Shown: positions 1,515-60,016 of the stretch, piece by piece
Layout: each line of letters starts with the position of its first letter
Position numbering within the stretch: the stretch's first letter is position 1
Assembly (NCBI GenBank): GCA_051866495.1
Contig: JBJDXD010000026.1
Coordinates: 177-64,176 of the forward strand
Reading direction: 5' to 3'
Length of the DNA stretch: 64,000 bases
Source: Phascolarctobacterium sp.
GTDB taxonomy: Bacteria > Bacillota > Negativicutes > Acidaminococcales > Acidaminococcaceae
Notes under the pieces: model-generated
The model's input: only the letters and a program-made list of their open reading frames with translations
Database searches by the model: none
Told to the model about the DNA's origin: nothing
Translations under genes and position numbers: made by a program

Positions 1515-3620
1515 TTAATTCTTTTGCCATACCCTTTGCAGAGTTTTGTACAGCACATCTATATAAAGGGGCTTTGCAATATGCCCATTCATACCGTTTT
1601 GCAGCGCCCGCTCCTTGTCCTCTTCAAAGGCGTTGGCCGTCATTGCCAAAATCGGCAGCGTGGTAACATCCTTACGGGGCAAATGGCGCATGGCCTTGGT
1701 AGCCTCATAGCCATCCATAATGGGCATTTGGATATCCATCAGCACCAGGTCGTAATAATACTCCGGCCTAGCCTTAAGCATCTCCACTGCCACGGAGCCA
1801 TCGGCAGCCTCCTCCACGGTAAAGCCCGCTCTGGACAAAATCTCGTAGGCGATTTCTCGATTGAGCTCGTTGTCCTCTACTACAAGCACCCGCTTACCCT
1901 CAAAGGTAATGGGCTTTTCTTCAGCCTTCTTTTCGGGCACAATGCCACGGCAGGCTCTGGCGGTTTCCAGCAGCACATTGCGCAGGTCGGACATAAAGAG
2001 GGGCTTATTGCAGAAGCCAGTTACCCCGGCCTCCCGCGCCTCCTGCTCAATATCCGTCCAGTCATAGGCCGTCAGGATAATAATGGGCGCCTCGTTACCA
2101 ATCACCCGACGAATGCGGCGCGCTGTTTCAATGCCATCCATCTGGGGCATCATCCAGTCAATAATATAGCTGTAAAAGGAATCCCCATCGTTATGAGCCT
2201 TTTGGGCACGGAATACAGCCTCGCGGCCGGAGGTAGTCCATTCGGAGCGCATACCGATTTGCCCCAGCATCTTGGTGACGCTGTCGCAGGTTTGGAAGTC
2301 GTCGTCGACTACCAGAGCACGTAAGCCCTCCAGCTCCACCATGTCCTCTTTCTTGCGGACTACACTACTCAAGGCGAAATCAAAGCCCACGGTAAAGGTC
2401 GTACCCTTTTTGAGCTGGCTTTGTACGGCGATGGTACCGCCCATCATATCCACCGTATGCTTAGTAATGGTCATGCCCAGGCCCGTGCCCTCGATGCCGC
2501 TGACGGTAGCAGTATTTTCTCGCTCAAAGGGGTCAAAGAGATGCTTCAAAAACGCCTCGCTCATACCGATGCCGCTATCGCGAATAATGAAATCATAATG
2601 GGCATAGCCGGGCTTTTTCGAAGCCTCCTGACGGATAGTGAAGGACACTACGCCGCCAATAGGGGTAAATTTAGCTGCGTTGCTCAAAATATTGATGAGC
2701 ACCTGATCTAGACGCAGGGGATCGAAAATCAGCTCCTCGTCCTCCACGTCAATAGTATCCACATAAAACTCCAAGCGCTTGGCGCGCATCTGGGGCCGTA
2801 TCATATTCACCAGATTATGAACCCGTTCGGATAGATTGCATTCCTTTTCCTGAATGACGATCTTACCGCTTTCAATGCGGCTCATGTTCAAAATATCGTT
2901 AATGAGGCTCAGCAAATGGTTGCTGGAGCTCATGATTTTTTCTAAGCAGTCCTGCACTCTTTCCTTGTTATCTAAATGGCTGGCCGCGATACTAGTGAAG
3001 CCGATTATAGCGTTCAAGGGCGTGCGGATATCGTGGCTCATATTAGACAGGAAGGTGGTTTTGGCCTTGGAGGCATGCTCCGCCTCGGCTAGGGCATCGT
3101 GCAAAAGCTGCTGCTGCTTCATCTCGTTGAGCACATCATTATCGGCGTCCCGCACTGCGAAAACCGCCGTAAAATTGTCCTCGTCCATATGCATGCGCAG
3201 GATGCGCCATTCGCCGTAGCCATAATCAACGCTATCGGGCAGGGCCCTACGACGGGCCCGCACCACGAAGGACGGCTCCCGCCGCAAAACACGGCGAATA
3301 TTTTCGATGCTGGTATCCCGCAGCAGCCTCTCCTGATCATCGGGATGGACAAAGCGCTGGATATAGCCGCGTATAGCCTCCGTATAGTCCATTTCCAAAA
3401 GGCCATCCATGGTTATAGCAGCACGGTTATGGTCATCACGCTGCAAATAAAAGACATTTTTATTCAAGTCCACCCGCCAGAGAGCATAATAATCCTGGCT
3501 CAGAGCGTAGACAGTTTCCTGCAGGGCCTCGGACTTTTGGCGTAATTCTTCCACATTAGAGCGCAGCTGCTCTAGGGTGGTAGCCCATTCTGTTCCCTTC
3601 GGTGTATTTTCGATCATCAT
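1515..3620 (-). CDS. Hybrid sensor histidine kinase (PAS-like input, HisKA, HATPase, two receiver domains)
   Basis: H-box FLSNMSHDIRTP, N-box NILSNAAKFT, G-boxes DSGIGM and GTGLGM, receivers IIDWMMP and LMDIQMP. Start set at ATG 3620 behind a GAGGAG RBS; the ORF track starts at 3644. Confidence 0.93.
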   Translation of the reverse strand: MMIENTPKGTEWATTLEQLRSNVEELRQKSEALQETVYALSQDYYALWRVDLNKNVFYLQRDDHNRAAITMDGLLEMDYTEAIRGYIQRFVHPDDQERLLRDTSIENIRRVLRREPSFVVRARRRALPDSVDYGYGEWRILRMHMDEDNFTAVFAVRDADNDVLNEMKQQQLLHDALAEAEHASKAKTTFLSNMSHDIRTPLNAIIGFTSIAASHLDNKERVQDCLEKIMSSSNHLLSLINDILNMSRIESGKIVIQEKECNLSERVHNLVNMIRPQMRAKRLEFYVDTIDVEDEELIFDPLRLDQVLINILSNAAKFTPIGGVVSFTIRQEASKKPGYAHYDFIIRDSGIGMSEAFLKHLFDPFERENTATVSGIEGTGLGMTITKHTVDMMGGTIAVQSQLKKGTTFTVGFDFALSSVVRKKEDMVELEGLRALVVDDDFQTCDSVTKMLGQIGMRSEWTTSGREAVFRAQKAHNDGDSFYSYIIDWMMPQMDGIETARRIRRVIGNEAPIIILTAYDWTDIEQEAREAGVTGFCNKPLFMSDLRNVLLETARACRGIVPEKKAEEKPITFEGKRVLVVEDNELNREIAYEILSRAGFTVEEAADGSVAVEMLKARPEYYYDLVLMDIQMPIMDGYEATKAMRHLPRKDVTTLPILAMTANAFEEDKERALQNGMNGHIAKPLYIDVLYKTLQRVWQKN

Positions 3621-3636
3621 AAATCTCCTCTTAAGC

Positions 3637-6474
3637 TTAACCACACAGCTGGGCCAGCAGCCCCATCAGCTTATCGATATCGATGGGCTTGGCCATATGG
3701 GCATTCATGCCCACCTCTAAGCAATGCTGCATATCCTCGGCAAAGGCGTCCGCCGTCATGGCGATAATGGGCAGCTTGGCATCCTCCCTGTCCAAGGCAC
3801 GAATCGCCTTGGTTGCCTCGTAGCCATTCATCACCGGCATCCGCAAATCCATCAGCACAGCCCGGTAGTACCCCACAGCAGCTGCTTTAAATTTATCCAC
3901 ACAGATTTGGCCATTTTCAGCCGCATCCACTAAAATCCCTTTACGCTTGAGCAGAGCAACGGCAATCTCCCGATTGAGCTCGTTATCCTCTGCCAAAAGC
4001 ACCCTGAGCCCTTCTAAATGCACCTCTGGCTTGGCCACCGGGGCCTTTTTCTCGGCGCAGCGATATCCGCGCTCCACATCCAGCACAATCTTAAACTCAG
4101 TGCCCCTATTGGGCTCGCTGCACACGGTAATGCTGCCGTCCATAGCGTCAATAATATATTTTGTAATGGCCATACCTAGGCCAGTACCCTCAATCTTTTG
4201 CACGCGGCGAGTGTCCTCGCGGGCGAAGGATTCAAAGATATGCTTTACAAAATCCTCCGTCATGCCAATGCCATTATCCTTCACACCAAAGTGCAGGCGC
4301 ACCATGTTGTCGCCCTTGGGAGAAGCCTCCTCGCGCAGGGAAAACTCCACCCTGCCGCCCTCAGGGGTAAATTTAACAGCATTGCCCAAAAGGTTCAAAA
4401 GCACCTGATGCAAACGCACGCCGTCGCTATAAATGCCGGCACAATTAAGCTTGTCCACATTTAGCACCAGCTCCTGATGCTTGCCCTCAAGCTGTCCCTG
4501 CATGGTGGTCACAATATTATTCACCAATTGCTTGAGGGATACATGCTCACGATGCAGCACCAGCTTGCCTGCTTCAATCTTGGACATATCCAGCACGTTA
4601 TTGATGAGCCCCAAAAGATGCTTGCTGGAAATAACGATTTTATCCAGGCAATCCTTGAGCTCCGCCGGATTATTGATATTATTCATAGCAATGTTGGTCA
4701 TGCCCATAATGGCATTCATAGGCGTGCGAATATCGTGGCTCACATTGGACAAAAACTCGCTCTTGGCCTTGTTAGCGCGCTCCGCCTCTAAAAGGGCTGC
4801 CTCCAGGGCCTCCTTGCTGCGACGCTCCGCCTCCACGGAGGCAGTAATATCCGTGCGGGCCATGCACACCCTGCCTAAGCGCATATCGATGGCAGTTACG
4901 GTAACCACCTTCACCTTAGGCGGAAAATTTTCGTTTTTATAAACAGAATAAGTGAAGCTATAGCTATCCTTATCCTTAAGCTGCTCGGCAATATATTCGG
5001 GATTGAGCTTGCTGAGCCACAGCTCCCTATCCTCCGGCACCACATGGCGTTCTAGGGCACCCTTTAAAAAGTCCTGGTACGCCACACGGCGACCGATCAA
5101 GGTACCATGAATCTTGCCCGCATAAAGCACCGTGCGAGTGCCATGGAGCAAATCTATATCGGTAATTCTATCCGCGCCCAAGACGGACATTTTGCGAACA
5201 ATTTTACGATTGATATACTGCTCTGTGGCATCCACAATGGATAATACACCCATGATATCATCCGTATCAGGGTTTTGCATCATGGTTACTTTAAACTGGG
5301 CGTAGCGACCATATTCCTCTAAGGGACTCTTCACAAAATAGGTATGGCTAACCTCGCGTTGACCCTGAGCATATTTTTCTAATAAGGGTGCTTTTAAGGC
5401 AAAGCTCAAAAATTCCTTTTGCTCCTTAGCATCCACAATAAATTGGCTTATAAAGCGCACGAAGGTTTCCTGCTCGTCCCCCAGCTTACTGAGCAAATCC
5501 TTGTCCTGATTGTCCACAACCTCAAGCATTTTATTTTGGGAAATATTGCAGTGTCCCACCAGGAGCATATCATGTCCCAGTCCATAGTAGCTGGAGGCCA
5601 GCAGCTCACGGTATTTGTTCCTTAGCTGCTCTCGCTCTTCTAGCTCCTTAGTAATATCCCGATAAACGCAATAATTGCGGCGCAGACCATCCTCGCTGGT
5701 CATGGTGTTGATGGTGTTGCGCACCCACAGGTAGCTGCCATCAGCATGAATTAGGCGATAGACAAATTCTGCACTTTCCCTTCCACTTTCAATATACATA
5801 TTTAAATCGTGGGCTAGCTGCATGCGGTCGTCGGGATGCACGCCGGTCATAGCATCCTGCTTATACAAAAGCCACACCTGGGGCAGCTCCATGCCAAACA
5901 TAGCGGCAAAGCCCTCGGACATAAACTCCGGCGTCCACACACCCCGCTCGTCGCATTTAATAACAGCCACGCCGCCGGGGATGGTGTTTAAAATATCCTG
6001 CTTTTGCTTATTAGCCATATTTAATTTGGCATAGCCCTGCTGTGTTTCCTTCAGCTTGCCTTCAATATTTTGCTGTATTTGGACTACGTCCGTAATATCC
6101 TGGTGACAGCCGTGTACCCTAAAGCCCTGGGTATATTCCGGGTCTAGGTCGCCGCAGCAGCGAATATACATCAAACCCCGCTCCGGATGCATCCAAGCAT
6201 ATTCAATCTCCGAATGCTCGCCCTGCATCATGTTTTGCATATAGGCTGTTGCACGCTCTTTTTCATAGGAAGGAATATTATCCTCCCACAGCCTATAGCC
6301 CTCCTCCGGCGAAAGCTCCTTGGCGATACCCATCATCTCCAAAAAGGTATCGTCTGCATATAAACGCGGTGGCTTATCCTGGTCATATTCCACACACCAC
6401 AGGCCAATCTTGGCCTCCTGCAGCATGGTATGCACTTCACCAATTTTACTGAAATGCTGGTCCAATCTTCTCAC
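3637..6474 (-). CDS. Multi-PAS hybrid sensor histidine kinase with C-terminal receiver
   Basis: PAS/PAC-like segments (VHPDDR...YRLIHADGSYLWVR), H-box FLSNVSHDIRTP, NLLGNAVKFT, GTGLGM, receiver LMDLRMP. No transmembrane helix is evident. Confidence 0.92.
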   Translation of the reverse strand: MRRLDQHFSKIGEVHTMLQEAKIGLWCVEYDQDKPPRLYADDTFLEMMGIAKELSPEEGYRLWEDNIPSYEKERATAYMQNMMQGEHSEIEYAWMHPERGLMYIRCCGDLDPEYTQGFRVHGCHQDITDVVQIQQNIEGKLKETQQGYAKLNMANKQKQDILNTIPGGVAVIKCDERGVWTPEFMSEGFAAMFGMELPQVWLLYKQDAMTGVHPDDRMQLAHDLNMYIESGRESAEFVYRLIHADGSYLWVRNTINTMTSEDGLRRNYCVYRDITKELEEREQLRNKYRELLASSYYGLGHDMLLVGHCNISQNKMLEVVDNQDKDLLSKLGDEQETFVRFISQFIVDAKEQKEFLSFALKAPLLEKYAQGQREVSHTYFVKSPLEEYGRYAQFKVTMMQNPDTDDIMGVLSIVDATEQYINRKIVRKMSVLGADRITDIDLLHGTRTVLYAGKIHGTLIGRRVAYQDFLKGALERHVVPEDRELWLSKLNPEYIAEQLKDKDSYSFTYSVYKNENFPPKVKVVTVTAIDMRLGRVCMARTDITASVEAERRSKEALEAALLEAERANKAKSEFLSNVSHDIRTPMNAIMGMTNIAMNNINNPAELKDCLDKIVISSKHLLGLINNVLDMSKIEAGKLVLHREHVSLKQLVNNIVTTMQGQLEGKHQELVLNVDKLNCAGIYSDGVRLHQVLLNLLGNAVKFTPEGGRVEFSLREEASPKGDNMVRLHFGVKDNGIGMTEDFVKHIFESFAREDTRRVQKIEGTGLGMAITKYIIDAMDGSITVCSEPNRGTEFKIVLDVERGYRCAEKKAPVAKPEVHLEGLRVLLAEDNELNREIAVALLKRKGILVDAAENGQICVDKFKAAAVGYYRAVLMDLRMPVMNGYEATKAIRALDREDAKLPIIAMTADAFAEDMQHCLEVGMNAHMAKPIDIDKLMGLLAQLCG

Positions 6475-6640
6475 CCATTTTCTGCATTATCTTTACTCAC
6501 GCAATAGTGTTCAGCGACACTTCTCCTGTTTATAATATTAACAAAAAGGGAGAGAAATTGCAAGAAAAATAAAAAAGCAAGAGCAAAATCTTACCCTCGT
6601 TTTCAAAAATTATTTATATTGGCAATGTTTTTGTATAAAG

Positions 6641-6702: not shown

Positions 6703-8754
6703 TTAATAGTTGGATTCGTGAATTTCAAAATAGGATTGGGGATGAGCGCAAACCGGGCAAACCTCAGGAGCCTTGGTGCCAACAACGATGTGACCGCAGT
6801 TACGGCATTCCCAAATCTTGATTTCGCTCTTAGCGAATACTTGGGCAGTTTCCACATTCTTCAAGAGTGCTCTGTAGCGTTCTTCATGATGGCGCTCGAT
6901 TTCGCCAACGGCACGGAATTTAGCAGCCAATTCGGGGAAGCCTTCAGCTTCGGCAGTCTTAGCAAAGCCCTCGTACATATCGGTCCATTCGTAGTTTTCG
7001 CCTTCAGCAGCAGCTAAAAGGTTGGCCGGAGTGTCGCCAATGCCGTTCAGCTCCTTGAACCACATTTTAGCATGCTCTTTTTCGTTTTCAGCGGTCTTTA
7101 AGAAGAGGGCTGCGATTTGCTCATAGCCTTCTTTTTTAGCTACGCTTGCAAAATAGGTGTATTTGTTGCGAGCGCCGGATTCGCCATCAAAGGCTGCATG
7201 CAGGTTCTTTTCGGTTTGGGTGCCAGCATATTTGTTAGCCGGAGCAGGAGCCTCTTCCTTTACGAATACGCTTGCGGGTTGCTTGCAAATCGGGCAGGTG
7301 AAGCCTTCAGGCAGGGTTTCGCCCTCATAAATATAACCGCAGATACCACATTTCCATTTAGTCATTTTCTTTTCCTCCTTAGTATTTACATGAAGCAGTT
7401 CGCTTCTGTCTTTATACATGGTATGAAGCATTTTTTCAGCCAGCTCGCTTAAGGGCTTGCCATAGAATTCTTCATACAATTTTTTAATAGATTCATTCTC
7501 ATGGCTCTTGCGCACCTTCATGCTGGCATCACGAGTGTACAGGCTGGCAATACGTGCTTTGCGAGCATCGTCTGCTACGGGCAGCATGGTTTTGGGTTGG
7601 CCGCCACCACCAATGCAGCCGCCGGGGCAGGTCATCACTTCGATAAAGTGATACTGCTTCTCGCCGGACTCAACGCGCTCAATCATCTTGCGCACATTGG
7701 CAGTGCCATAAACAATGGCCACGTTCACAGTGAGGCCGTCCACATCCAGGCTGGCCTCGCGAATGCCCTCATAGCCGCGCACGGGCTGCAAATCCAAGAG
7801 CGGTGCCGGTGCTTCCTTACCGGTAATAAGCTCATAAGCAGTACGCAGTGCAGCTTCCATAACGCCACCGGTATTACCAAAGATAACGCCGGCGCCACTG
7901 CCCTCGCCCATGTAATCGTCATAGGCGGAGTCCTCTAAGCTAGCAAAATCCACGCCTGCTTCGCGAGCCCATATAGCCAGCTCACGGGTTGTGATGACTG
8001 CGTCCATGTCACGCAGGCCTTCAATTTTGAGATAATCAGCTGCGTCGCTCATTTCTTCGCGACGAATTTCAAATTTTTTCGCAGTGCAGGGAGTTAAGGC
8101 TACGTTCACAATCTTGGTGGGGTCGATACCCATCTTTTTAGCAAAGAAGGTCTTAATAGTGGGGCCCTGCATGCCGATGGGGCTCTTAGCACTGGAAATA
8201 TGGGGCAGGATTTCGGGATAATACATCTCTGCAAATTTTACCCAAGCGGGGCAGCAGCTGGTGAATTGGGGCAGGGGACCACGTCCCTTAGTGATGCGCT
8301 CGATAAGCTCGCTGGCTTCCTCCACAATGGTTAAGTCCGCAGCAAAATTGGTGTCTAATACATAGTCCACACCCAGCTTGCGCAGTAAAGCTACCATTTT
8401 GCCTTCTACGAAGGCGCCTGCCGGCATACCAAATTCTTCGCCCAAGCCCACGCGCACGGACGGGGAAGTGCTTACAATAACAATTTTATCAGGATCAGCC
8501 ACTGCTTCACGAATATCTTGATACTCGTAACGCTCAGTGAGGCTGTCTACGGGGCAAACCTGGGTGCATTGACCGCAATGGATGCAGATGCCCTTGCCAC
8601 CGGTTTCCTCCAAGGTATAGGTGCCATGCACGCCAATATATTCCTCGCACACGGTTTTGCACATACCACATTTGATGCATTTGTCCTCATGACGCACGAT
8701 GGCCACATTGTCCTCATCCATGGGCACACGCACGTTAAGCGGCAGATGTTGCAT
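6703..8754 (-). CDS. hydA: [FeFe]-hydrogenase (2x[4Fe-4S] ferredoxin + H-cluster + small-subunit region) fused to rubredoxin and rubrerythrin
   Basis: [19 protein letters not shown] ferredoxin motifs. H-cluster motifs [33 protein letters not shown]. Then CGICG...CPICK (rubredoxin), the rubrerythrin di-iron bundle (GESGAR...ENEKEH...GENYE...EIERHH) and C-terminal CRNCG...CPVC. Confidence 0.95.
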
Positions 8755-8810
8755 AATTCTCCCTCCTTTAAGGTTTTGTTCATATGTTTGCTAAACAACC
8801 TTTACCTCAT

Positions 8811-8893
8811 ATTATGCTACTCATGACCAAAGCTGTCAATAATATTAGCCTAATATTTATTATTAGTATGACATGCAACCTGAATTTTGTCAA
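8811..8893 (-). promoter_or_regulatory. Tandem sigma70-type promoters with an intervening palindromic operator candidate
   Basis: TTGACA(8839-8834)-17 bp-CATAAT(8816-8811) and TTGACA(8893-8888)-17 bp-CATACT(8870-8865). Perfect palindrome AATATTAG-C-CTAATATT at 8841-8857. Confidence 0.65.
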
Positions 8894-9035
8894 TAATCAT
8901 TTTCTATTAGTAGATATTTCAGAGTATTTTAGTGGGAATTGAGGCGCATTACTTCGTCAAAACACTCCCTACTAAAAAAAGACTATGTAAATAATTTGCT
9001 TGAATCTCTAAAGCAGGGGGATAATAAAGCTTTAA

Positions 9036-9233
9036 AAAGTCGCCGCAACAAAAAAGCAGCAGCAAGCGCTTCTTGCATATGTAGAAACGCTGCTTACTGC
9101 TAAAGACGCCGACACTATATACGCTACTTACGATAAACTGGATACAGAAATAGCAAATTTATATAACCTAAGCGATACTGAATATCAAATTATTAAAAGC
9201 AATCTAGAAGGTCAAAATCTCTTTTTATGTTAG
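9036..9233 (+). pseudogene. Orphan C-terminal fragment resembling type IIG/Eco57I-like restriction-modification methyltransferase tails
   Basis: Frame with no start codon: KVAATKKQQQALLAYVETLL...LDTEIANLYNLSDTEYQIIK...*. It resembles the 'IDxLVYxLYxLTxEExxII' ending of such enzymes. The context is AT-rich and an in-frame stop lies immediately upstream. Confidence 0.4.
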
Positions 9234-9353
9234 CGACTTAAACTTACTAACTACACATAAGCACGACTAGACAAGCTCCCCATAAAAGGCAGGGTAGGCA
9301 ATTCTTTCATGCTTTTCTCCTATCAGGAACCAACCAAATTATACATTGATATT

Positions 9354-11871: not shown

Positions 11872-12750
11872 TTATTTATTCACGATCTTCCCATAGCACT
11901 CCGGTCTGCGGTCACGGAACAAGCCCCAGCTCAAGCGGTCCTCCGCCAGCTGGTCCAAATCATACTCTGCATAAAGAATTTCTTCCTTATCGCGGCTAGC
12001 ATCCTGAATAAGTGCACCCGTGCCGTCGGTCATAAAGCTAGAGCCATAGAACAAAAGGGAAGACTTTTGCCCAGCATTAGCCTCACAGGGCTCCACACTC
12101 TCAAGGCCAATACGGTTGGCAGCCACCACCGGCATCAGATTAGCCGCACTGTGGCCCTGCATCACGCGACGCCAATGGGGCATACTGTCCGTATCCAAAA
12201 TAGGCTCCGAGCCAATGGCCGTGGGATAAAGCAAAATTTCTGCTCCGTTTAAGGCTAAGCAGCGAGCTGTTTCGCTAAACCATTGATCCCAGCAAATGCC
12301 GATGCCAATTTTTCCAAAGCGGGTGTCGAATACCTTGAAGCCCGTATCACCGGGTTTAAAATAGAATTTTTCCTGATAAAAATGGTCGTCAGGAATATGA
12401 GTCTTGCGATACACGCCCAGATTAGTGCCATCCGCATCAATGCAGGCAATGGAATTATACAGCTGGTTCACATCACGCTCAAAAAAGCTGATGGGCAGCA
12501 CAATTCCCAGCTCCTTCGCCAGTCGCTGACCCATTTGCACAGCCGCATTCTCTGCGGTGGGCTCGGCGTAAGCGTAATACTCATAGCGACGCTCCTGACA
12601 GAAGTAGGGTCGCTCCCACAGCTCCGGCAGCAGCACCAGCTGCGCTCCCTTGCTCGCTGCCTCGCGCACCAGCGCCTCTGCGTGGCGCAAATTATCCTCA
12701 CGGCTCGCAGCGCAGCGCAGCTGCACTGCGGCCACCTTAAGCTTTCTCAT
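11872..12750 (-). CDS. aguB: N-carbamoylputrescine amidase
   Basis: Nitrilase fold: LLPELW, YRKTHIPDD, GICWDQWFSE. Start at ATG 12750 overlaps the aguA stop (ATGA), with GGAGG upstream. Confidence 0.93.
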   Translation of the reverse strand: MRKLKVAAVQLRCAASREDNLRHAEALVREAASKGAQLVLLPELWERPYFCQERRYEYYAYAEPTAENAAVQMGQRLAKELGIVLPISFFERDVNQLYNSIACIDADGTNLGVYRKTHIPDDHFYQEKFYFKPGDTGFKVFDTRFGKIGIGICWDQWFSETARCLALNGAEILLYPTAIGSEPILDTDSMPHWRRVMQGHSAANLMPVVAANRIGLESVEPCEANAGQKSSLLFYGSSFMTDGTGALIQDASRDKEEILYAEYDLDQLAEDRLSWGLFRDRRPECYGKIVNK

Positions 12751-13946
12751 AAGCATCCTCCCTTCGGGATTTGCTGGGTAATGCAGTGAATATTGCCGCC
12801 CCCCGTCAAGATAGCTCTTGCCGGTATTTGCACCACCTTGCGCTCCGGGCAAAGCGCGGCCAGAAGGGCCGCCGCGCGCCCGTCGCTGGCTGCATTTGCA
12901 CCGCCGAAGGCGGGCAGCACCACACTGTCATTACTAAAATAAAAATTCACATAGCTTGCTGCCAGCCTTTCGCCGGCCTCACGCATATCCTCGCCTTCCA
13001 CAAAGTCGAAGCCTGCCACCTCCTCTTCCGTGATGCACACTGGCACATCCGGAATGGGCAGCTTATGGACGACGATTTTGCGTCCCTTGGCATCGGTGAC
13101 CTGCTCCAAATAATCAAGACTGGCCTTGCTCAAAGCGTACTGAGGGTCATCCTCCTTATCGGTCCAAGCCAAAACCACCTCGCCGGGACGAATAAAGGCG
13201 CACACATTATCAACGTGCTCATTGGTCTCGTCGTTGTAAATGCCACGAGGTAACCACAGCACCTTTTCCACATTGAGATATTCCTTGAGCTTTGCTTCAA
13301 TCTGGGCTTGGGTCAAATTGGGATTGCGGCCGGCGCTGAGCAAGCAGGACGCAGTCACCATGGCCGTGCCCTCGCCGTCCACATGAATGGAGCCGCCCTC
13401 TAAAACAAAGGGTGCTGCCTCGTACAAAGCATAGCCCTTTTGCGCTGCAAAAGCGGCGGCAAAGGCATCATCCTGCTCATAGTCAGGATAAAGGCCATCT
13501 ACCTCGCCACCCCAAGCGTTAAAGCGCCAGTTCACGCCCCGCACTTCTCGCCGGGCTCCCCTAGCGCAGCTGCCTACGGCAGCATCAGCTTGAGCTTCAG
13601 AGCCTTCCTCACAGGGCACATCCTTCACGACAAAGGTAGGCCCTATATCCCTAGCCCAGCTGTCGTCCGTAGCAATATCCAAAAGCTCCACATTGGCAAG
13701 GCCCGCTAGCATTTGCTCAGCCCGCTCCCAATGCTTGCTCCTTTTATCGCAAGCCACATACACCCTTTCGCTGGCGCTGATGGCCTTAATCACGGCCGTA
13801 AAGGCCGCGCAGGCGGCCTCCGCCCCAAAGCTCCAGGAGCCGGGGCGCTGGGGCCACACAATGATGCAGCCCTCGTGCTGTTCGTACTCCGCCGGCATGC
13901 GAAAGCCGTCCATTTTTGGTGTTGACTGTGTCAGCATCTTCATCAT
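12747..13946 (-). CDS. aguA: Agmatine deiminase
   Basis: FRMPAEYE, DDSWARDIGP, FNAWGG, LEGGSIHVDG, NEHVDN, GGNIHCITQQ. Confidence 0.94.
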   Translation of the reverse strand: MMKMLTQSTPKMDGFRMPAEYEQHEGCIIVWPQRPGSWSFGAEAACAAFTAVIKAISASERVYVACDKRSKHWERAEQMLAGLANVELLDIATDDSWARDIGPTFVVKDVPCEEGSEAQADAAVGSCARGARREVRGVNWRFNAWGGEVDGLYPDYEQDDAFAAAFAAQKGYALYEAAPFVLEGGSIHVDGEGTAMVTASCLLSAGRNPNLTQAQIEAKLKEYLNVEKVLWLPRGIYNDETNEHVDNVCAFIRPGEVVLAWTDKEDDPQYALSKASLDYLEQVTDAKGRKIVVHKLPIPDVPVCITEEEVAGFDFVEGEDMREAGERLAASYVNFYFSNDSVVLPAFGGANAASDGRAAALLAALCPERKVVQIPARAILTGGGNIHCITQQIPKGGCL

Positions 13947-15184
13947 GAAAGTCGTCCTTTGAAATCCTCATAACCAAAACGGCGCACCAGCTCCGTGCTG
14001 CCATCCTTTTTTAGCAGCACAATATCCGGCAGGGGCATGCCGTTAAAGGTATTATTTTTAACCATGGAATAAATGGCCATGTCTTCAAAAATTAGCTTGT
14101 CGCCCACCTTTATTTCCCGCTCAAAGCTGTAATCCCCAATCACATCACCAGCAAGGCAGGTCATGGAGGACAAGCGATAGGTGTGAGCCTTTTCCTTAGC
14201 CTCAAAGCCATCCCGCAGGGGCGGGCGATAGGGCATTTCCAGCACGTCCGGCATATGGCAGGCCGCGGATGCGTCCAAAATTAGAATATCTAGGCCATTA
14301 TGCACAATGTCCAGCACCTCGCTCACAAGATAGCCTGCATTGAGCGCCACGGCTTCGCCGGGCTCCAAATAAACCTCAACGCCATAGGTGCTGCGAATAT
14401 ATTTCACTAAATTAATCAGCGCCTCTACGTCGTAGTCAGCGCGAGTAATATGATGTCCACCACCCAAATTGAGCCATTTTAATTGGCCAAAAAATTTGCC
14501 AAATTTGGTTTCAAAGGCTTTGAAGGTAGTGATTAAATCATCGGAGTTTTGCTCGCAGAGGGTGTGGAAATGCAGTCCCTCCACGCCCTCAGGCAGCTGC
14601 TCAGGGAAATTGGCCAAGGTTACGCCTAGGCGGGAGCCCACGGCACAGGGGTCGTAAATAGCGTGCTCCGCCTCTTGAGTAGAGCATTCAGGATTGATAC
14701 GAATGCCCACGCTGGCCTTGGAGCTTTGCCAAATGCTCCTGTGCTTTTCGAGCTGGGCAATAGAGTTAAAAACGATGTGGTCGCAAATCTGCACCAGCTC
14801 CTGCATGTCCTCGGTGCGAAAGGCAGGGGCGAAAACATGATTTTCCTTGCCCATTTCCTCGTGGCCAAGGCGTGCTTCAAAAATGCCGCTAGCCGTGGTG
14901 CCCGCCAAATACTCGCCCATAAGGGGATAAAGGCGGAACATGGAGAAGCATTTTTGGGCCAGCAGAATATGACAGTCCGCCTCACGCTGCACCCTTTGCA
15001 GCAGCTCCAAATTTTTAATGAGCCTAGCCTCATCCACCACATAACTAGGAGTAGGCAGTGCCTTTAGCACTGCCTCCTGTTTTTCTTTCAATGTTCTTGC
15101 TTGTAAAGCCTGCAGCTTAGCGTCCGCCTTGGCGGCGTCCACCACATAAGCAGGCATATTTTTTGCGTTACTCATGTTGCTCAC
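13943..15184 (-). CDS. nspC: Carboxy(nor)spermidine decarboxylase
   Basis: LLAQKCFS (PLP lysine), GLHFHTLCEQ, NLGGGHHIT, YLEPGEAV, CHMPDVLEMPYRP, TCLAGDVIGDY. Confidence 0.94.
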   Translation of the reverse strand: MSNMSNAKNMPAYVVDAAKADAKLQALQARTLKEKQEAVLKALPTPSYVVDEARLIKNLELLQRVQREADCHILLAQKCFSMFRLYPLMGEYLAGTTASGIFEARLGHEEMGKENHVFAPAFRTEDMQELVQICDHIVFNSIAQLEKHRSIWQSSKASVGIRINPECSTQEAEHAIYDPCAVGSRLGVTLANFPEQLPEGVEGLHFHTLCEQNSDDLITTFKAFETKFGKFFGQLKWLNLGGGHHITRADYDVEALINLVKYIRSTYGVEVYLEPGEAVALNAGYLVSEVLDIVHNGLDILILDASAACHMPDVLEMPYRPPLRDGFEAKEKAHTYRLSSMTCLAGDVIGDYSFEREIKVGDKLIFEDMAIYSMVKNNTFNGMPLPDIVLLKKDGSTELVRRFGYEDFKGRLS

Positions 15185-16449
15185 TCAACGGTAACAGGGT
15201 TTTCGTCCACAACCCAGGGCAGGCCGAACTTGTTCAGCATATCCATGTACGGATCGGGGTCAAACTCCTCTACGTTAAAGACGCCCTTGCCCTGCCATTG
15301 TTTAGTAATAACCAGTGCGGTACCAATCATAGCAGGCACGCCAGTGGTGTAGCTGATGGCTTGGGAGCCAACCTCCTTGTAGCACTCTTGATGGTCGCAA
15401 ACATTATAGATAAAGATGGTCTTCTTTTCGCCGTTCTTGGTGCCGGTGAAAATACAACCGATATTTGTTTTACCAACGGTGCGAGGTCCCAAGGAAGCAG
15501 GATCCGGCAGCAGAGCCTTCAGGAATTGGATGGGCACGATTTCGTGACCCTCGTACATCATGGGCTTGGTGGACAGCATGCCCACATTTTCCAAGCACTT
15601 CATGTGGGTCAGATAGCTTTGGCCAAAGGTCATGAAGAAGCGAATGCGCTTTACGCCGGGGATATTTTTAGCTAGGGATTCAATTTCCTCATGGTGCAAA
15701 AGGTACATATCCTTCATGCCAACTTGAGGGAAATCATATTCGCGTTTAATGGACATAGCGGGAATTTCAATCCACTTGCCGTTTTCCCAATAGGAGCCAG
15801 GGGCAGAAACCTCGCGCAGGTTAATTTCAGGATTGAAATTGGTAGCAAAGGGATAGCCATGGTCGCCACCGTTGCAGTCCAAAATGTCGATGGTATCGAT
15901 TTGGTCAAAATAATGCTTTAGAGCATAAGCAGAGAAAACGCTGGTTACGCCGGGGTCGAAGCCGGTGCCCAAAAGGGCCATAATGCCAGCCTTTTCAAAT
16001 TTTTCCTTATAAGCCCATTGCCAGGAATAGTCGAAGTAGGCAGAGAAGCCCTCCTCCTTGCAGCGCTTGTCATAAACCTCGCGCCAAGCGGGGTCATCAA
16101 TATTTTCGGGCTCATAGTTGGCAGTGTCGATATAGTCAACCTTGCACTCCAGGCAGGCATCCATAATGGTCAAATCCTGATAGGGCAAAGCCACATTCAA
16201 AACAGCATCCGGCTGATAGGCTTTAATTAAAGCAACCAGCTCGTCCTTATTATCTGCGTCCACCTTGGCAGTGGTGATTTTGGTAGTGGTAGTGGGCTGC
16301 AGCTTTGCAGCCACAGCGTCGCATTTGGATTTAGTGCGGCTAGCAATGCACAGCTCGGTAAAAACCTCACTATTTTGGCAGCATTTGGCGATAGCTACGC
16401 CGGCAACACCGCCGCAGCCGATTACTAATAATTTACTCATACTCTTCAT
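15181..16449 (-). CDS. Carboxy(nor)spermidine dehydrogenase (saccharopine dehydrogenase family)
   Basis: VIGCGGVAG Rossmann motif, NVALPYQDLTIMDAC, GFDPGVTS, FATNFNPEINLRE; directly upstream of nspC. Confidence 0.92.
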   Translation of the reverse strand: MKSMSKLLVIGCGGVAGVAIAKCCQNSEVFTELCIASRTKSKCDAVAAKLQPTTTTKITTAKVDADNKDELVALIKAYQPDAVLNVALPYQDLTIMDACLECKVDYIDTANYEPENIDDPAWREVYDKRCKEEGFSAYFDYSWQWAYKEKFEKAGIMALLGTGFDPGVTSVFSAYALKHYFDQIDTIDILDCNGGDHGYPFATNFNPEINLREVSAPGSYWENGKWIEIPAMSIKREYDFPQVGMKDMYLLHHEEIESLAKNIPGVKRIRFFMTFGQSYLTHMKCLENVGMLSTKPMMYEGHEIVPIQFLKALLPDPASLGPRTVGKTNIGCIFTGTKNGEKKTIFIYNVCDHQECYKEVGSQAISYTTGVPAMIGTALVITKQWQGKGVFNVEEFDPDPYMDMLNKFGLPWVVDENPVTVE

Positions 16450-16474
16450 CTCCTATCGAATTATACATTATCCT

Positions 16475-16577
16475 TAAAACAGCTAGAAGGGGTCAGATAC
16501 GCGAAAGGGCGACGACGGCGTACTAGAGGTACGTCTAGGAGCCCTGACAAAGTAGATGGCCCCTTATAGCTGTTTTA
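16475..16577. repeat. Structured intergenic repeat, copy 1 (long multi-stem hairpin)
   Basis: Nested inverted repeats AAAACAGCTA/TAGCTGTTTT, GGGGTCA/TGGCCCC, TAC/GTA, GGGC/GCCC, CGTAC/GTACG; homologous to 17469-17569. Confidence 0.8.
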
Positions 16578-17429
16578 CTTTTCTTCTTCTTCTAGCATAT
16601 CCTCAACATACTTGGGTAGCATAAAGGCTCCCTTATGCAGATTGGCGGAATAATACCAGGTCTTGATGCCCCTTGCCTTCCACTTCACGGGCTCGAAATC
16701 CTTCAAAGGATGGTATTTTTTCGAGGCAAAGCCAAAGAGCCAGTAGCCGGAGGGGCAGGTGGGAATGGCTGCCTGATACACGCGGCTAATGGGAAAGCTG
16801 TGGCTAGCCTTGCGGTGCATGGCACGACAGGTTTCCTCATCCTCATCATAGAAGGGACTGCCATGCTGGTACACCATGATGCCGTCCTCCTTGAGGGCGC
16901 GGAAGCAGTTACCATAAAACTCCTTGGTAAAAAGTCCTGCTGCATGGCCCAAGGGGTCGATGGCATCGTTAATAATCAAATCATATTCATTCACCTTGGA
17001 GCGCAAAAAACGCAAGCCGTTAGCGTTAAAAATCGTTACGCGGGCATCGTCAAGGCCAACGGCGTTGTCGGGGAAAAAGTCACGGCACACATCGATGAAC
17101 ACATGGTCCGTCTCCACAACGTCGATTTCTTCAATCTCAGGATAGCGGGACAGCTCGCGGGCTACACCGCCATCGCCACCGCCGATAACCAGCACCTTTT
17201 TCACATGGGGATGCACGGCCATGGGCACATGCACAATCATCTCGTCATAAATAAATTCGTCCTTTTGGGAAAAGACGATGGTGCCATCGCAGGCGATAAA
17301 GCGACCAAATTCCTTAGAGTCGAAAACGTCAATCCGTTGAAAATCCGTGTCCTCCCCAAATAATTGCTTTTCAATTTTTATATCCAGCTTCACATCATCC
17401 GTGTGGTAATCGGAAAACCAAAGCTCCAT
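16575..17429 (-). CDS. speE: Polyamine aminopropyltransferase (spermidine synthase family)
   Basis: MELWFSD, FIYDEMIVHVPM, VLVIGGGDGG, IINDAIDP. Confidence 0.92.
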   Translation of the reverse strand: MELWFSDYHTDDVKLDIKIEKQLFGEDTDFQRIDVFDSKEFGRFIACDGTIVFSQKDEFIYDEMIVHVPMAVHPHVKKVLVIGGGDGGVARELSRYPEIEEIDVVETDHVFIDVCRDFFPDNAVGLDDARVTIFNANGLRFLRSKVNEYDLIINDAIDPLGHAAGLFTKEFYGNCFRALKEDGIMVYQHGSPFYDEDEETCRAMHRKASHSFPISRVYQAAIPTCPSGYWLFGFASKKYHPLKDFEPVKWKARGIKTWYYSANLHKGAFMLPKYVEDMLEEEEK

Positions 17430-17468
17430 TCCATCACAACCTTACAAACTCTTTTAATCAGCTCAACA

Positions 17469-17569
17469 AGATGTGTCAGAAAGTACCAGATGCGCGAAAC
17501 AGCGACGAAGGCGTACTAGAAGTACGTCTAGGAGCTGTGCCAAAGCAGATGGTGCTTTATCACGCATCT
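17469..17569. repeat. Structured intergenic repeat, copy 2
   Basis: AGATGTG/CGCATCT, AGTACCA/TGGTGCT, TGC/GCA, CAGC/GCTG, CGTAC/GTACG; same loop sequences as copy 1. Confidence 0.8.
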
Positions 17570-19016
17570 ACACAAGTACATTAATATTATTAACCTCAGG
17601 ATCTTCGGGCCCCTGCATAGAGCACCCCTTCTCCTTAGCGTAGATTATGTACTCAATAATCTCCTTAGTAATAACCTCGCCGGGTGCCAAAATAGGAATG
17701 CCCGGAGGATAGCACATTACGAACTCGGAGCAAATTCTGCCCGCCGTCTCCCGAATGGGCAGGGGCTCATCCTTGGCATAAAAGGCCTCCTGGGGCGATA
17801 CAACCACCTGGGGCGCAATATATTCCGTATTCAGCATCTTGGACGGGTCGCGGGAGTATAAGCGTTTAATATCCGCCAATGCACCCACCAAGCGCTCAAT
17901 ATCCTGAATCCTGTCGCCGATGGAGACATAGGCTAGGATATTAGCAATATCGCCAAACTCAATTTGAATATCGTATTCGTCACGAAGCAAATCGTAAACC
18001 TCGATACCGGCCAGACCAATATCGCGAGTATAAACGGAGAGCTTGGTCACGTCAAAATCATAAATGCTGCTACCGTTCTTCAGCTCCTGACCATAGGCAT
18101 AATAGCCGCCGATGGAATTGATTTCCTCGCGAGCGTACTCCGCCATCTCGGCCACCTTGGCAAAGGAGGTTTCTCCCCGCATGTACAGATTACGGCGGGA
18201 AATATCAAGGCTGGAAAGCAACAAATAGGAAGCACTGGTAGTCTGGGTGAGGTTAATAATCTGGCTCACATATTCCCAGTTCACATTGGGACCAGTTAAA
18301 AGCAAGGAGCTCTGGGTGAGACTACCACCGGATTTGTGCATGGAAACGGAGGCCATATCCGCTCCGGCCGCCATAGCATTCACCGGCATATTAGGGCCAA
18401 AGTAAAAATGGGTACCGTGGGCCTCGTCCACCAAGCACAGCATGTTATGAGCATGGGCCAGCTTCACAATGGAGCGCAAATCGGAGCAGATGCCATAATA
18501 GGTAGGATTATTCACCAAAACCGCCTTGGCATCTGGATTGGCCTTGATAGCCTTTTCCACCTCGCTCAGCTCCATACCTAGGGAAATACCCAGCTTGCTA
18601 TCCACCTCAGGGTTAATATATACAGGTATCGCGCCGTTTAAAACCAGCGCGTTAATCACGCTCTTATGCACGTTGCGCGGCAAAATAATCTTATCCCCGG
18701 CCTTGGTGGAAGACAGCACCATGCTTTGCACGGAGGAGGTAGTCCCTCCCACCATAAAAAAGGCATGGGCAGCCCCAAAGGCTTCTGCCGCCAGCTGCTC
18801 CGCATCCCGAATAACCGAAACAGGATGGCATAAATTATCCAAGGGCTTCATGGAATTGACGTCCAAATTGACACATTTTTCTCCAAGAAGCTCCCGCAGC
18901 TCCGGATTGCCACGGCCACGCTTGTGCCCGGGCACATCAAAGGGTACCACGCGCTTTTTACGAAAGGCCTCCAGGGCCTCGTAAATAGGCGCTGATAGTT
19001 GCGAAAGTTTCTCCAT
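17568..19016 (-). CDS. speA: Arginine decarboxylase (Orn/Lys/Arg decarboxylase, fold type I)
   Basis: FDVPGHKRGRG, VGGTTSSVQ, LVDEAHG, VSMHKSGGSLTQSS, YPPGIPILAPGE. Arginine specificity is inferred from the aguA/aguB context. Confidence 0.88.
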   Translation of the reverse strand: MEKLSQLSAPIYEALEAFRKKRVVPFDVPGHKRGRGNPELRELLGEKCVNLDVNSMKPLDNLCHPVSVIRDAEQLAAEAFGAAHAFFMVGGTTSSVQSMVLSSTKAGDKIILPRNVHKSVINALVLNGAIPVYINPEVDSKLGISLGMELSEVEKAIKANPDAKAVLVNNPTYYGICSDLRSIVKLAHAHNMLCLVDEAHGTHFYFGPNMPVNAMAAGADMASVSMHKSGGSLTQSSLLLTGPNVNWEYVSQIINLTQTTSASYLLLSSLDISRRNLYMRGETSFAKVAEMAEYAREEINSIGGYYAYGQELKNGSSIYDFDVTKLSVYTRDIGLAGIEVYDLLRDEYDIQIEFGDIANILAYVSIGDRIQDIERLVGALADIKRLYSRDPSKMLNTEYIAPQVVVSPQEAFYAKDEPLPIRETAGRICSEFVMCYPPGIPILAPGEVITKEIIEYIIYAKEKGCSMQGPEDPEVNNINVLV

Positions 19017-59970: not shown

Positions 59971-60016
59971 AAATAGCACCTCCTTCCGTTATGTTTATTA
60001 AGTTTTAGAAAATAGC

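Follow-up and report, generated by a model that had tools for sequence, protein, structure and literature searches.

The hydR gene and its surroundings

The window, that is, the whole stretch of 64,000 nucleotides of Phascolarctobacterium sp. DNA analysed here, contains at 6703..8754 on the minus strand a complete open reading frame, hydR, which starts with ATG, ends in a stop codon and encodes 683 amino acids; in the window sequence, stop codons lie in frame upstream of the ATG. The initial annotation of this DNA did not mention the strand. A Shine-Dalgarno sequence, AAAGGAGGG, can be read directly at 8761..8769, 7 nt 5' of the start codon. It lies on the minus strand, as do all the domains, promoters and the terminator described below.

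The N-terminal part of the protein is a ferredoxin-like F-cluster domain for two [4Fe-4S] clusters (aa 19-72; 8539..8700), recognized by a Pfam Fer4-type dicluster match and by the positions of its cysteine ligands (Cys 26/29/32/36 and 57/60/63/67). It is followed by the H-cluster catalytic domain (aa 90-384; 7603..8487), which is identified by Pfam Fe_hyd_lg_C (PF02906, E 2e-92), by TIGR02512 and by its motifs. The motifs were defined as TSCCPxW (L1), [M/T]PCxxKxxE (L2) and ExMxCxxGCxxGGGQP (L3), and all three are found: L1 reads TSCCPAW (aa 165-171; 8242-8262) and includes the proton-relay residue Cys167, L2 reads TPCTAKKFE (aa 221-229; 8068-8094), and L3 (aa 372-387; 7594-7641) extends three residues past the Pfam domain boundary. 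The intact H-cluster domain with its TSCCP cysteine and the TPC form of the P2 motif, both pointed out in the initial annotation, are thus present as described.

The hydrogenase part ends in a small-subunit-like C-terminal wrap (aa 395-450; 7405..7572; Fe_hyd_SSU, PF02256, E 5e-23). Next comes a first rubredoxin, Rd1 (aa 466-497; 7264..7359), with Cys 469/472/487/490 in CxxC pairs; Pfam RUBY_RBDX matches two stretches of the protein, the second of which covers Rd1. The rubrerythrin (Rbr) di-iron four-helix domain, of the short-loop type (aa 510-634; 6853..7227), is recognized by Pfam PF02915 (aa 516-631, E 2e-22) and NF045767, and contains the di-iron ligands E525, E558, H561, E586, E589, E620 and H623, with ExxH motifs at aa 558-561 and 620-623. 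A second rubredoxin, Rd2, which is the C-terminal rubredoxin of the rubrerythrin (aa 646-683; 6706..6819; Cys 650/653/666/669; PF21349 at 648-677), completes the chain. A single 683-aa frame therefore joins the hydrogenase to a rubredoxin and a complete rubrerythrin with all metal ligands present, as originally proposed. An AF2 monomer model agrees with the domain folds and with flexible linkers, those beside Rd1 (aa 458-463 and 501-505) having pLDDT below 50; its confidence is also low at 586-589. The N-terminus contains neither a Tat nor a Sec signal, whereas the relatives P0125 and P0130 carry Tat signals.

Two sigma-70-like promoters precede the gene. The distal one (8865..8893), TTGACA-17-CATACT, is a TG-extended consensus match and is kept, together with an AT-rich element just upstream, in a second Phascolarctobacterium species. 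The proximal one (8811..8839), TTGACA-17-CATAAT, is putative; it matches the consensus at 11 of 12 positions and is not conserved in L003. Transcription start sites are predicted near 8804 and 8858. A palindrome, AATATTA-GGC-TAATATT, which precedes the proximal promoter, is not kept in the sister species, and neither are two weak PerR-box-like matches in the AT-rich spacer at 8851-8871, each with 3 mismatches to the B. subtilis consensus. At this level of mismatch the whole window contains 14 such matches against 5.9 expected, a number that is reached in 2 of 100 shuffles. With matches this weak, in AT-rich DNA and absent from the sister species, both a PerR operator upstream of hydR and peroxide-responsive regulation of the Phascolarctobacterium gene are unproven. 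Downstream, a terminator-like hairpin with a T-run lies at 6578..6599, about 100 nt past the stop codon, which suggests that hydR is a monocistronic, stand-alone transcription unit.

The surrounding genes encode two hybrid histidine kinases, a PdaC/DUF3298 lipoprotein, DUF554 and YgjP proteins and a polyamine cluster, and none of these window neighbours is conserved beside hydR in other taxa. Pfam scans of the 20 neighbouring ORFs reveal no hydEFG, PerR or other redox partner genes, tblastn with a PerR-like query finds no PerR/Fur gene in the window, and there are no radical-SAM/BATS or HydF-type genes among its ORFs of at least 150 aa. The absence of hydEFG maturases from the window had already been noted from the sequence. 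A literature search for Phascolarctobacterium hydrogenases or maturases returned nothing specific.

Integrity, classification and conservation of the fusion

An assembly artefact, which the initial annotation named as an outcome that would overturn its proposal, is ruled out by independent assemblies and by junction-spanning DNA and RNA contigs. Many independent assemblies from ENA, Logan and NCBI contain proteins of 94-100% identity, nearly all of 683 aa, and the fusion is present on hundreds of independent contigs. The junction (about 7230-7410) is spanned by independent pig-gut metagenome contigs that show no indel or joint. Metatranscriptome contigs also cover hydR, including the junction, without indels; these are assembled contigs in which DNA carry-over is possible, and the metatranscriptome depth over the rubrerythrin part is inflated by rubrerythrins from other taxa.

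Among the NCBIfam models, HydR exceeds the cutoffs of TIGR02512, '[FeFe] hydrogenase, group A' (481.8 against 405.95), and of the rubrerythrin model NF045767 (265 against 200), whereas its score of 464.8 for NF040762, 'ferredoxin hydrogenase', is well under the cutoff of 900. Assignment to the bifurcating, NADH-dependent [FeFe] hydrogenases (groups A3/A6) was considered and rejected: the score for NF040763 is 565.8, below the cutoff of 765, and the alignment begins at position 133 of this model, so that the N-terminal [2Fe-2S]/His-ligated domains are absent. No NuoE/NuoF-like genes that could encode HydB/HydC-type partners neighbour hydR in the window. Matches to solved [FeFe] hydrogenases are at the level of 57-64% identity, with E values of 1e-126 to 8a6t HydA1, 1e-123 to the DdH fusion and 1e-113 to CpI.

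Comparison with 43 diverse HydR homologs shows no variation in the H-cluster motifs or in any of the Fe ligands, including all 8 F-cluster cysteines, the rubredoxin cysteines and the seven di-iron ligands. The same holds for T221 and A225 of L2 and for the proton-transfer residues C167, E146, S191, E149 and R153, which, judging from the CpI sequence motifs, would be equivalent to C299, E279, S319, E282 and R286 of CpI. A comparison of two Phascolarctobacterium species gives dN/dS values of 0.038 (hydrogenase half) and 0.027 (rubrerythrin half), so that by this measure both halves are under strong purifying selection. In a rough neighbor-joining tree of the HydA part, calculated without bootstrap, the fusions cluster apart from unfused outgroups and the Phascolarctobacterium sequences nest among Clostridia, which suggests that the gene was acquired horizontally.

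Relation to the Clostridium perfringens enzyme

The HydR protein of C. perfringens (CperHydR, CPF_1076) has been shown to reduce H2O2 at the expense of H2 and to be extremely biased toward H2 uptake (Taylor et al. 2025, JACS 147:9764, PMC11926857). [quoted passage not shown] Its H2 evolution is at most 3 against an uptake of 41 umol H2/min/mg, and at none of the pH values is a reductive (H2-evolution) current seen, even when the rubrerythrin domain is not folded (PMC11926857). The initial annotation knew of no biochemical demonstration of such an enzyme and, because this one had already been published, overrated the novelty of the fusion. H2-driven H2O2 reduction by a HydR fusion is already known, and the Phascolarctobacterium protein is a further member of the family; with the enzymology established, the value of the present analysis lies in the context.

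Using a CperHydR sequence taken from protein clusters, we find that the two proteins are collinear (2-683 against 3-696), with 63% identity and 76% similarity, and that they share the order 2x[4Fe-4S], H-cluster, SSU-like tail, Rd, di-iron Rbr, Rd. L2 is identical in both (TPCTAKKFE), both rubrerythrin domains have the short loop resulting from a 13-residue deletion, and both genes stand alone, the C. perfringens gene also being unlinked to hydEFG. The linker between Rd1 and Rbr is about 15 residues shorter in the Phascolarctobacterium protein. The hosts also differ, one being a Clostridium and the other a Gram-negative-type Firmicute (Negativicutes) that lives as a gut commensal, and the source of H2 may differ as well, being perhaps external H2 from the community rather than the product of a fermentative HydA of its own.

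On the strength of this likeness, we consider it very probable that the window gene encodes a cytoplasmic H2:H2O2 oxidoreductase of the HydR family, the activity being transferred from the 63%-identical CperHydR. In such an enzyme, H2 would be split at the H-cluster, where the uptake-type L2 has Thr221 and Ala225 in place of Met and Ser, and the two electrons would be relayed by the pair of N-terminal [4Fe-4S] clusters to the tethered rubredoxins and from rubredoxin to the rubrerythrin di-iron site, where H2O2 would be reduced to two H2O, with one H2 consumed per H2O2. This is essentially the electron-transfer chain proposed in the initial annotation, and the same function has been demonstrated for the collinear CperHydR. 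The suggestion made there, that TPC is associated with uptake-biased clostridial enzymes, is borne out by the published description, in which C. pasteurianum hydrogenase II (CpII; TPCTAKKYE) and CperHydR (TPCTAKKFE) are cited as uptake-biased (PMC11926857). CpII and HydR have in common the M2-type core (2x[4Fe-4S] and H-domain) and Thr/Ala in L2, a pair associated with a bias toward H2 oxidation; however, CpII, which we compared through its quoted motif, lacks the Rd and Rbr extensions and still evolves H2 to a measurable extent. Maturation of the Phascolarctobacterium enzyme would depend on HydEFG encoded elsewhere in the genome.

The description of the protein as 'single-chain' needs to be qualified. 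One polypeptide does carry all the domains, but its short-loop rubrerythrin implies a di-iron site made from two chains. Compared with D. vulgaris Rbr (1RYT/1B71), the HydR domain has 13 residues fewer between helices B and C, while it matches the 178-aa rubrerythrin 9FJ2 without gaps (E 1e-65). A single chain needs this 13-residue loop to close its four-helix bundle, so that in HydR the bundle is most likely completed only by domain swapping between the two chains of a homodimer, which would then be the working enzyme; a domain-swapped homodimer has also been proposed for CperHydR (PMC11926857). HydR shares its di-iron ligands and C-terminal rubredoxin with the stand-alone rubrerythrins (D. 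vulgaris 1RYT/1B71, P. furiosus 1NNQ/2HR5 and 9FJ2), and the P. furiosus protein is also of the short-loop type. In contrast, stand-alone rubrerythrins are supplied with electrons by free rubredoxin and NAD(P)H-dependent reductases, whereas in HydR the hydrogenase and an extra rubredoxin are covalently attached.

Relatives, alternative readings and biological meaning

Intact HydR orthologs are found in gut Negativicutes, Oscillospiraceae, Lachnospiraceae, Spirochaetales MAGs and Fusobacteriota. With members outside Clostridia (Negativicutes, Spirochaetales MAGs and Fusobacteriota), the family is, judging from these sequences, more than a clostridial curiosity. Note that the fusion-bearing species obtained from the genome-contig scan are a lower bound (at least that many), as plain rubrerythrins dominate the matches listed. 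At six Clostridia loci hydR is immediately preceded by a Fur/PerR-like gene, and at many other loci such a gene holds the equivalent position before plain rbr genes. Fournierella, Owariibacterium and Allofournierella are among the genera with the perR-hydR arrangement. This linkage is independent genomic support, at the level of gene order, for the role in peroxide stress that the biochemical paper only proposed.

Other relatives show the parts in different arrangements. Unfused hydA and rbr genes are adjacent at L020 and L021, the latter encoding an Rd-HydA protein with a separate rbr gene, and HydA-Rd and HydA-Rd-Rd proteins without Rbr also occur (P0127 and P0129). In the L006 relative, an in-frame stop is found at the codon equivalent to W467. 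Furthermore, the Rd-Rbr-Rd cassette of other fusions, of the flavin-reductase type (P0164) and the Fer4 type (P0161), is 72-81% identical to the C-terminal 225 aa of HydR. In those proteins electrons enter through a flavin reductase or ferredoxin-like module, presumably from NAD(P)H or ferredoxin, whereas HydR uses a hydrogenase. Since the same cassette is fused to these modules too, the N-terminal module is an exchangeable electron donor, and, together with the unfused hydA-rbr pairs, this gives a clear picture of the origin of the fusion.

The alternative that survives best, although we regard it as improbable, is that the same enzyme delivers its electrons not to H2O2 but to O2, some other oxidant or a separate rubredoxin-dependent partner, and so acts as an H2-driven oxidase or as an H2:rubredoxin reductase that feeds other detoxifying enzymes. 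Rubrerythrin-type proteins are reported to have both oxidase and peroxidase activity, as in C. acetobutylicum revRbr, which counts in its favor, and the Rbr-less P0127 and P0129 and the Rd-HydA of L021 imply that transfer from hydrogenase to rubredoxin is a functional unit in itself. A different hydrogenase provides a precedent: the [NiFe]-type FrhAGB of Thermococcus onnurineus reduces rubredoxin with H2 (PMC13333549). It resembles HydR in using H2 as reductant for a rubredoxin-dependent oxidative-stress chain, but belongs to an unrelated hydrogenase class and works through separate proteins with no fusion (PMC13333549). Against a different acceptor stand the invariance of all seven di-iron ligands and of the full Rbr fold in the fusion family, the direct measurement of H2O2 turnover by CperHydR (PMC11926857) and the PerR-like linkage, which points to peroxide. 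This alternative extends the reading of HydR as an H2:H2O2 oxidoreductase more than it replaces it.

Very unlikely, in our judgment, is a fermentative, H2-evolving hydrogenase that takes electrons from reduced ferredoxin and whose fused Rbr only shields the H-cluster from reactive oxygen species. The labels '[FeFe] hydrogenase, group A' or 'ferredoxin hydrogenase' in NCBIfam and the sources would fit such an enzyme, as would the N-terminal 2x[4Fe-4S] domain, which is the usual ferredoxin-facing module, and a marsupial-gut survey that places Phascolarctobacterium_A among the carriers of 'hydrogen-producing fermentative hydrogenases'. However, L2 is of the CpII/CperHydR uptake type with its Thr and Ala invariant in the family, the NF040762 score is little more than half its cutoff, and CperHydR has the scant H2 evolution and lacks the reductive current, as described above (PMC11926857). 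Least likely of all is a non-functional relic (e.g., a horizontal gain without HydEFG maturases) or an assembly chimera: the lack of hydEFG in the 64-kb window, the nesting among Clostridia in the rough tree and the L006 stop would agree with it, but the low dN/dS on both halves, the intact ORF in very many independent assemblies with indel-free DNA and RNA contigs across the junction, the strong ribosome binding site and promoter-like sites, and C. perfringens hydR, which is likewise unlinked to hydEFG while its enzyme is known to be expressed, all argue against it.

As an H2:H2O2 oxidoreductase, HydR would allow the strictly anaerobic Phascolarctobacterium to defend itself against peroxide with H2, of which the gut has plenty, while sparing NAD(P)H. 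CperHydR is itself O2-sensitive (PMC11926857), which may limit what even this enzyme contributes in vivo under oxidative stress.

At the community level, it is conceivable, if somewhat speculative, that the Phascolarctobacterium enzyme runs on H2 from neighbouring gut microbes and not on H2 of its own, so that community H2 would be an 'antioxidant currency' governing how much oxygen and peroxide commensal anaerobes tolerate. Phascolarctobacterium is a succinate-consuming commensal and, to our knowledge, not a major H2 producer. HydR-type proteins are labelled in databases as 'rubrerythrin' or as '[FeFe] hydrogenase group A / ferredoxin hydrogenase', so that surveys of gut H2 metabolism may list a consumer of H2 among the producers. 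If the present reading is true, the spread of the fusion over at least four phyla and its PerR-like linkage would represent an H2-powered defence against peroxide, widespread and shared horizontally, which surveys now mislabel as a 'fermentative H2-producing hydrogenase' or simply as 'rubrerythrin'.

Architecture and integrity of the fusion

The hydR gene is one ORF (6703..8754, minus strand) that encodes 683 residues from an ATG start, with a Shine-Dalgarno sequence, AAAGGAGGG, 7 nt 5' of the ATG and in-frame stops further upstream. As the initial annotation proposed, hydrogenase, rubredoxin and rubrerythrin are continuous in this frame, and Pfam and NCBIfam domains agree. Pfam identifies a two-[4Fe-4S] ferredoxin-type domain (residues 19-72), Fe_hyd_lg_C (90-384, E 2e-92), Fe_hyd_SSU (395-450, E 5e-23), two stretches of rubredoxin-like RUBY_RBDX, and Rubrerythrin (516-631, E 2e-22). 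NCBIfam assigns the N-terminal two-thirds to '[FeFe] hydrogenase, group A' (TIGR02512, 481.8 bits against a cutoff of 405.95) and the C-terminal third to rubrerythrin (NF045767, 265 against a cutoff of 200); the protein falls below the cutoffs of the bifurcating/NADH-dependent (NF040763), clostridial ferredoxin-hydrogenase (NF040762) and group B models. The closest solved structures are group A enzymes for the hydrogenase part (8a6t, E 1e-126; the D. desulfuricans fusion, E 6e-123; CpI, E 1e-113) and the 178-aa rubrerythrin 9fj2 for the C-terminal part (E 2e-64). The window protein has no signal peptide and differs in this from the Tat-bearing relatives P0125 and P0130.

All motifs named in the initial annotation are found, including TSCCP and TPC: L1 is TSCCPAW (165-171), L2 is TPCTAKKFE (221-229) and L3 lies at 372-387. 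Eight Cys serve the two F-clusters, the CxxC...CxxC patterns of the first and second rubredoxins (Rd1 and Rd2) span 469-490 and 650-669, and the ExxH pair of the rubrerythrin (Rbr) lies at 558-561 and 620-623. In an alignment of 43 diverse full-length members, which are 63-95% identical to the window protein, the metal ligands are all invariant, as are T221 and A225 of L2 and C167, E146, E149, R153 and S191, which we take to correspond to the CpI proton pathway. An AF2 model based on this alignment (mean pLDDT 80.5) has a confident hydrogenase core and low confidence at the tethers (458-463, 501-505, 632-643) and at di-iron ligands 586-589, a predicted pattern that is as expected for beads on flexible linkers plus a site that no monomer can complete.

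An assembly artefact, which had been named as a possible refutation, is ruled out by independent proteins of the same length and by junction-crossing contigs of both DNA and RNA. Near-identical proteins (94-100%), almost all of 683 aa, occur on many independent ENA, Logan and NCBI contigs, with Phascolarctobacterium sp. as one named source. Contigs of four independent pig-gut metagenomes match the region without indel or joint, single metagenome contigs cross the HydA/Rd/Rbr junction (~7230-7410), and pig-gut metatranscriptome contigs span the gene body and the junction. Note that the very high RNA depth and apparent joints at 6905-7106 come from rubrerythrin transcripts of other taxa. Against L003, the locus of a second Phascolarctobacterium species (92% amino acid identity), dN/dS comes to 0.038 over residues 1-455 and to 0.027 over residues 506-683; these ratios are approximate because dS is high, and such low values indicate strong purifying selection on both halves.

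Probable direction of catalysis and electron route

The initial annotation read the gene as coupling H2 to peroxide reduction and knew of no biochemical demonstration. This coupling was in fact shown in 2025, when Taylor et al. (J Am Chem Soc 147:9764; PMC11926857), building on genomic surveys by Meyer and Calusinska et al., expressed the C. perfringens chimera and named it CperHydR. The enzyme oxidizes H2 at 26-41 umol/min/mg, evolves it at <=3, and gives no proton-reduction current at any pH; under H2 it reduces H2O2 catalytically at ~442 per min, and under CO it does not (PMC11926857). The uptake bias is partly ascribed to L2, which reads MPCTSKKFE in CpI and TPCTAKKYE in CpII (PMC11926857), so that the link between TPC and uptake mentioned in the annotation is borne out. 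The central idea is thus not new, and the architecture, as the annotation supposed, had been catalogued in hydrogenase surveys long before.

The C. perfringens protein belongs to cluster P0305, whose members include ABG85712.1 of strain SM101. It is collinear with the window protein over residues 2-683 (63% identity, 76% similarity), the L2 motifs are letter-identical, and the sole notable gap is an Rd1-Rbr linker that is ~15 residues shorter in the window protein. Compared with D. vulgaris rubrerythrin, the window Rbr domain lacks exactly 13 residues between helices 2 and 3, and the short rubrerythrin 9fj2 aligns with it gaplessly. The same feature is the argument of Taylor et al. that the di-iron bundle forms solely in a domain-swapped homodimer (PMC11926857).

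In the best-supported mechanism, a cytoplasmic homodimer would pass electrons from H2 through the H-cluster, the two [4Fe-4S] clusters and the Rd centres to the di-iron site, where H2O2 would be reduced to water. The downhill potential difference between H2 and the Rd and di-iron centres is large and, together with the Thr/Ala L2 motif, would make the operation one-way. For the window ortholog itself, we infer activity, dimerisation, maturation and H2 source. Three rivals are each much less likely in view of the conserved ligands, the results for CperHydR, the uptake-type L2 motif and purifying selection: an enzyme that serves another terminal acceptor (O2 or external partners, for example), an H2-evolving enzyme whose Rbr domain is purely protective, and a non-functional relic.

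Surroundings of hydR and other loci in the window

Upstream of hydR are two sigma-70-like sites on the minus strand: a distal one (8893-8865), conserved in L003 together with the AT-rich element preceding it, and a proximal one (8839-8811), which with its palindrome is not conserved there. A terminator-like hairpin (6599-6578, minus strand) lies 3' of the gene. The neighbours are functionally unrelated: a PdaC/DUF3298 lipoprotein gene lies on the upstream side, and on the downstream side come two hybrid histidine kinases, then DUF554, YgjP and a polyamine cluster. In agreement with the annotation as regards the maturases, hydE, hydF and hydG were not found within the 64-kb window; nor was a Fur/PerR gene or a second hydrogenase. 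The C. perfringens and Cetobacterium hydR genes also stand alone.

In a pig-gut contig of the same species (L001, 5904-8810), the PdaC-like gene and hydR are separated by a gene for a 723-aa type IIG restriction-modification protein (N6_Mtase/Eco57I/TaqI_C) plus a 247-aa ORF. The matching stretch of the window (8755-9353) is without them, and the spacer 5' of hydR is therefore a variable insertion site. The tandem kinases directly downstream (1515-6474, minus strand; PAS-HisKA-HATPase-REC, 945 and 709 aa) are followed in L001 (11392-17909) by an Hpt protein and a REC-HD-GYP response regulator, and together they are likely to form a phosphorelay tied to c-di-GMP. GGDEF proteins are encoded at 19421-20839 and 30338-31714. 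The polyamine biosynthesis cluster (11872-19016, minus strand) comprises a CN_hydrolase (N-carbamoylputrescine amidase-like), an agmatine deiminase (PAD_porph), an Orn/DAP/Arg decarboxylase, a saccharopine-dehydrogenase-like protein (carboxyspermidine dehydrogenase type), a spermidine synthase and an Orn/Lys/Arg decarboxylase.

Elsewhere, a single 6837-aa ORF (38361-58874, minus strand) has a signal-peptide-like N-terminus and an 'NRFKTFEVGAN' stretch recalling the TPS secretion domain. Its first and last 1500 aa have no Pfam family match at E<=1e-4, and DNA tandem repeats are absent. Upstream on the minus strand are a 370-aa ORF without Pfam match (58867-59979) and a ShlB/FhaC-type POTRA/Omp85 transporter (60492-62177). 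The three genes resemble a two-partner secretion locus for a giant exoprotein, here in a diderm Firmicute. Possible defence or mobile-element genes are a 987-aa ORF without Pfam match (33998-36961, minus strand) adjoining a PD-(D/E)XK transposase-like gene (37192-38034), and an AAA_15/AAA_21 (AbiEii/OLD-like) ATPase (28145-29458, plus strand) alongside an uncharacterized 285-aa ORF.

Family spread and modularity

In a library clustered at 50% identity, the sole end-to-end match is P0122 from Paraclostridium bifermentans (64% identity), which indicates a compact family. The family is nonetheless widely distributed, with named full-length representatives in Paraclostridium, several Clostridium species, [Clostridium] symbiosum, Hespellia, Lachnospiraceae and Cetobacterium (Fusobacteriota). 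The matches listed in a species-genome scan include at least Phascolarctobacterium, Fournierella, Allofournierella, Owariibacterium, Lawsonibacter, Butyrivibrio, Spirochaetales MAGs and one MAG labelled Sutterella. A rough NJ tree built from the hydrogenase part separates the fusions, as one group, from unfused M2 enzymes and places Phascolarctobacterium inside Clostridia, which suggests that the fusion arose once and then spread horizontally. Two very long predicted proteins, P0121 (4122 aa) and P0123 (1957 aa), have 7-8 separate stretches matching the query and are probably concatenated or eukaryotic-style gene models holding several hydrogenase or rubrerythrin units.

Six loci (L004, L005, L007, L008, L009 and L011) have a 120-aa Fur-family gene on the strand of hydR that stops 3-50 nt short of it; this gene scores best against PerR models, at values below equivalog cutoffs, and many other loci carry it ahead of plain Rbr or Rd-Rbr genes. 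Unfused arrangements also occur: a Lachnospiraceae locus (L020, 7872-9970) has an unfused M2 hydA with rbr behind it as a separate gene in another frame, and a Bacilli MAG (L021, 3658-5733) has an N-terminal rubredoxin fused to hydA and then a separate rbr. The ortholog in a Lawsonibacter sp. isolate genome (L006, 8001-10043) has a single in-frame stop at the W467-equivalent codon, just before the first Rd1 Cys, which would divide it into HydA and Rd-Rbr-Rd pieces; possible causes are nonsense mutation, sequencing error and genuine fission. In addition, Rd-Rbr-Rd cassettes 72-81% identical to that of the window stand behind a flavin-reductase domain (P0164) and a ferredoxin-like domain (P0161), and P0127 is a HydA-Rd protein without Rbr. 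The Fur/PerR-like linkage, unfused pairs and cassette fusions show a modular system, a rubredoxin-rubrerythrin peroxidase supplied by swappable electron-donor modules and in many cases under a PerR-like regulator. All three sets of observations extend the published picture.

The remaining interest lies in the PerR-like gene linkage of hydR, in the risk that metagenomic H2 surveys mislabel genes of this type, and in a host that is a gut Negativicute and may depend on H2 from its community.
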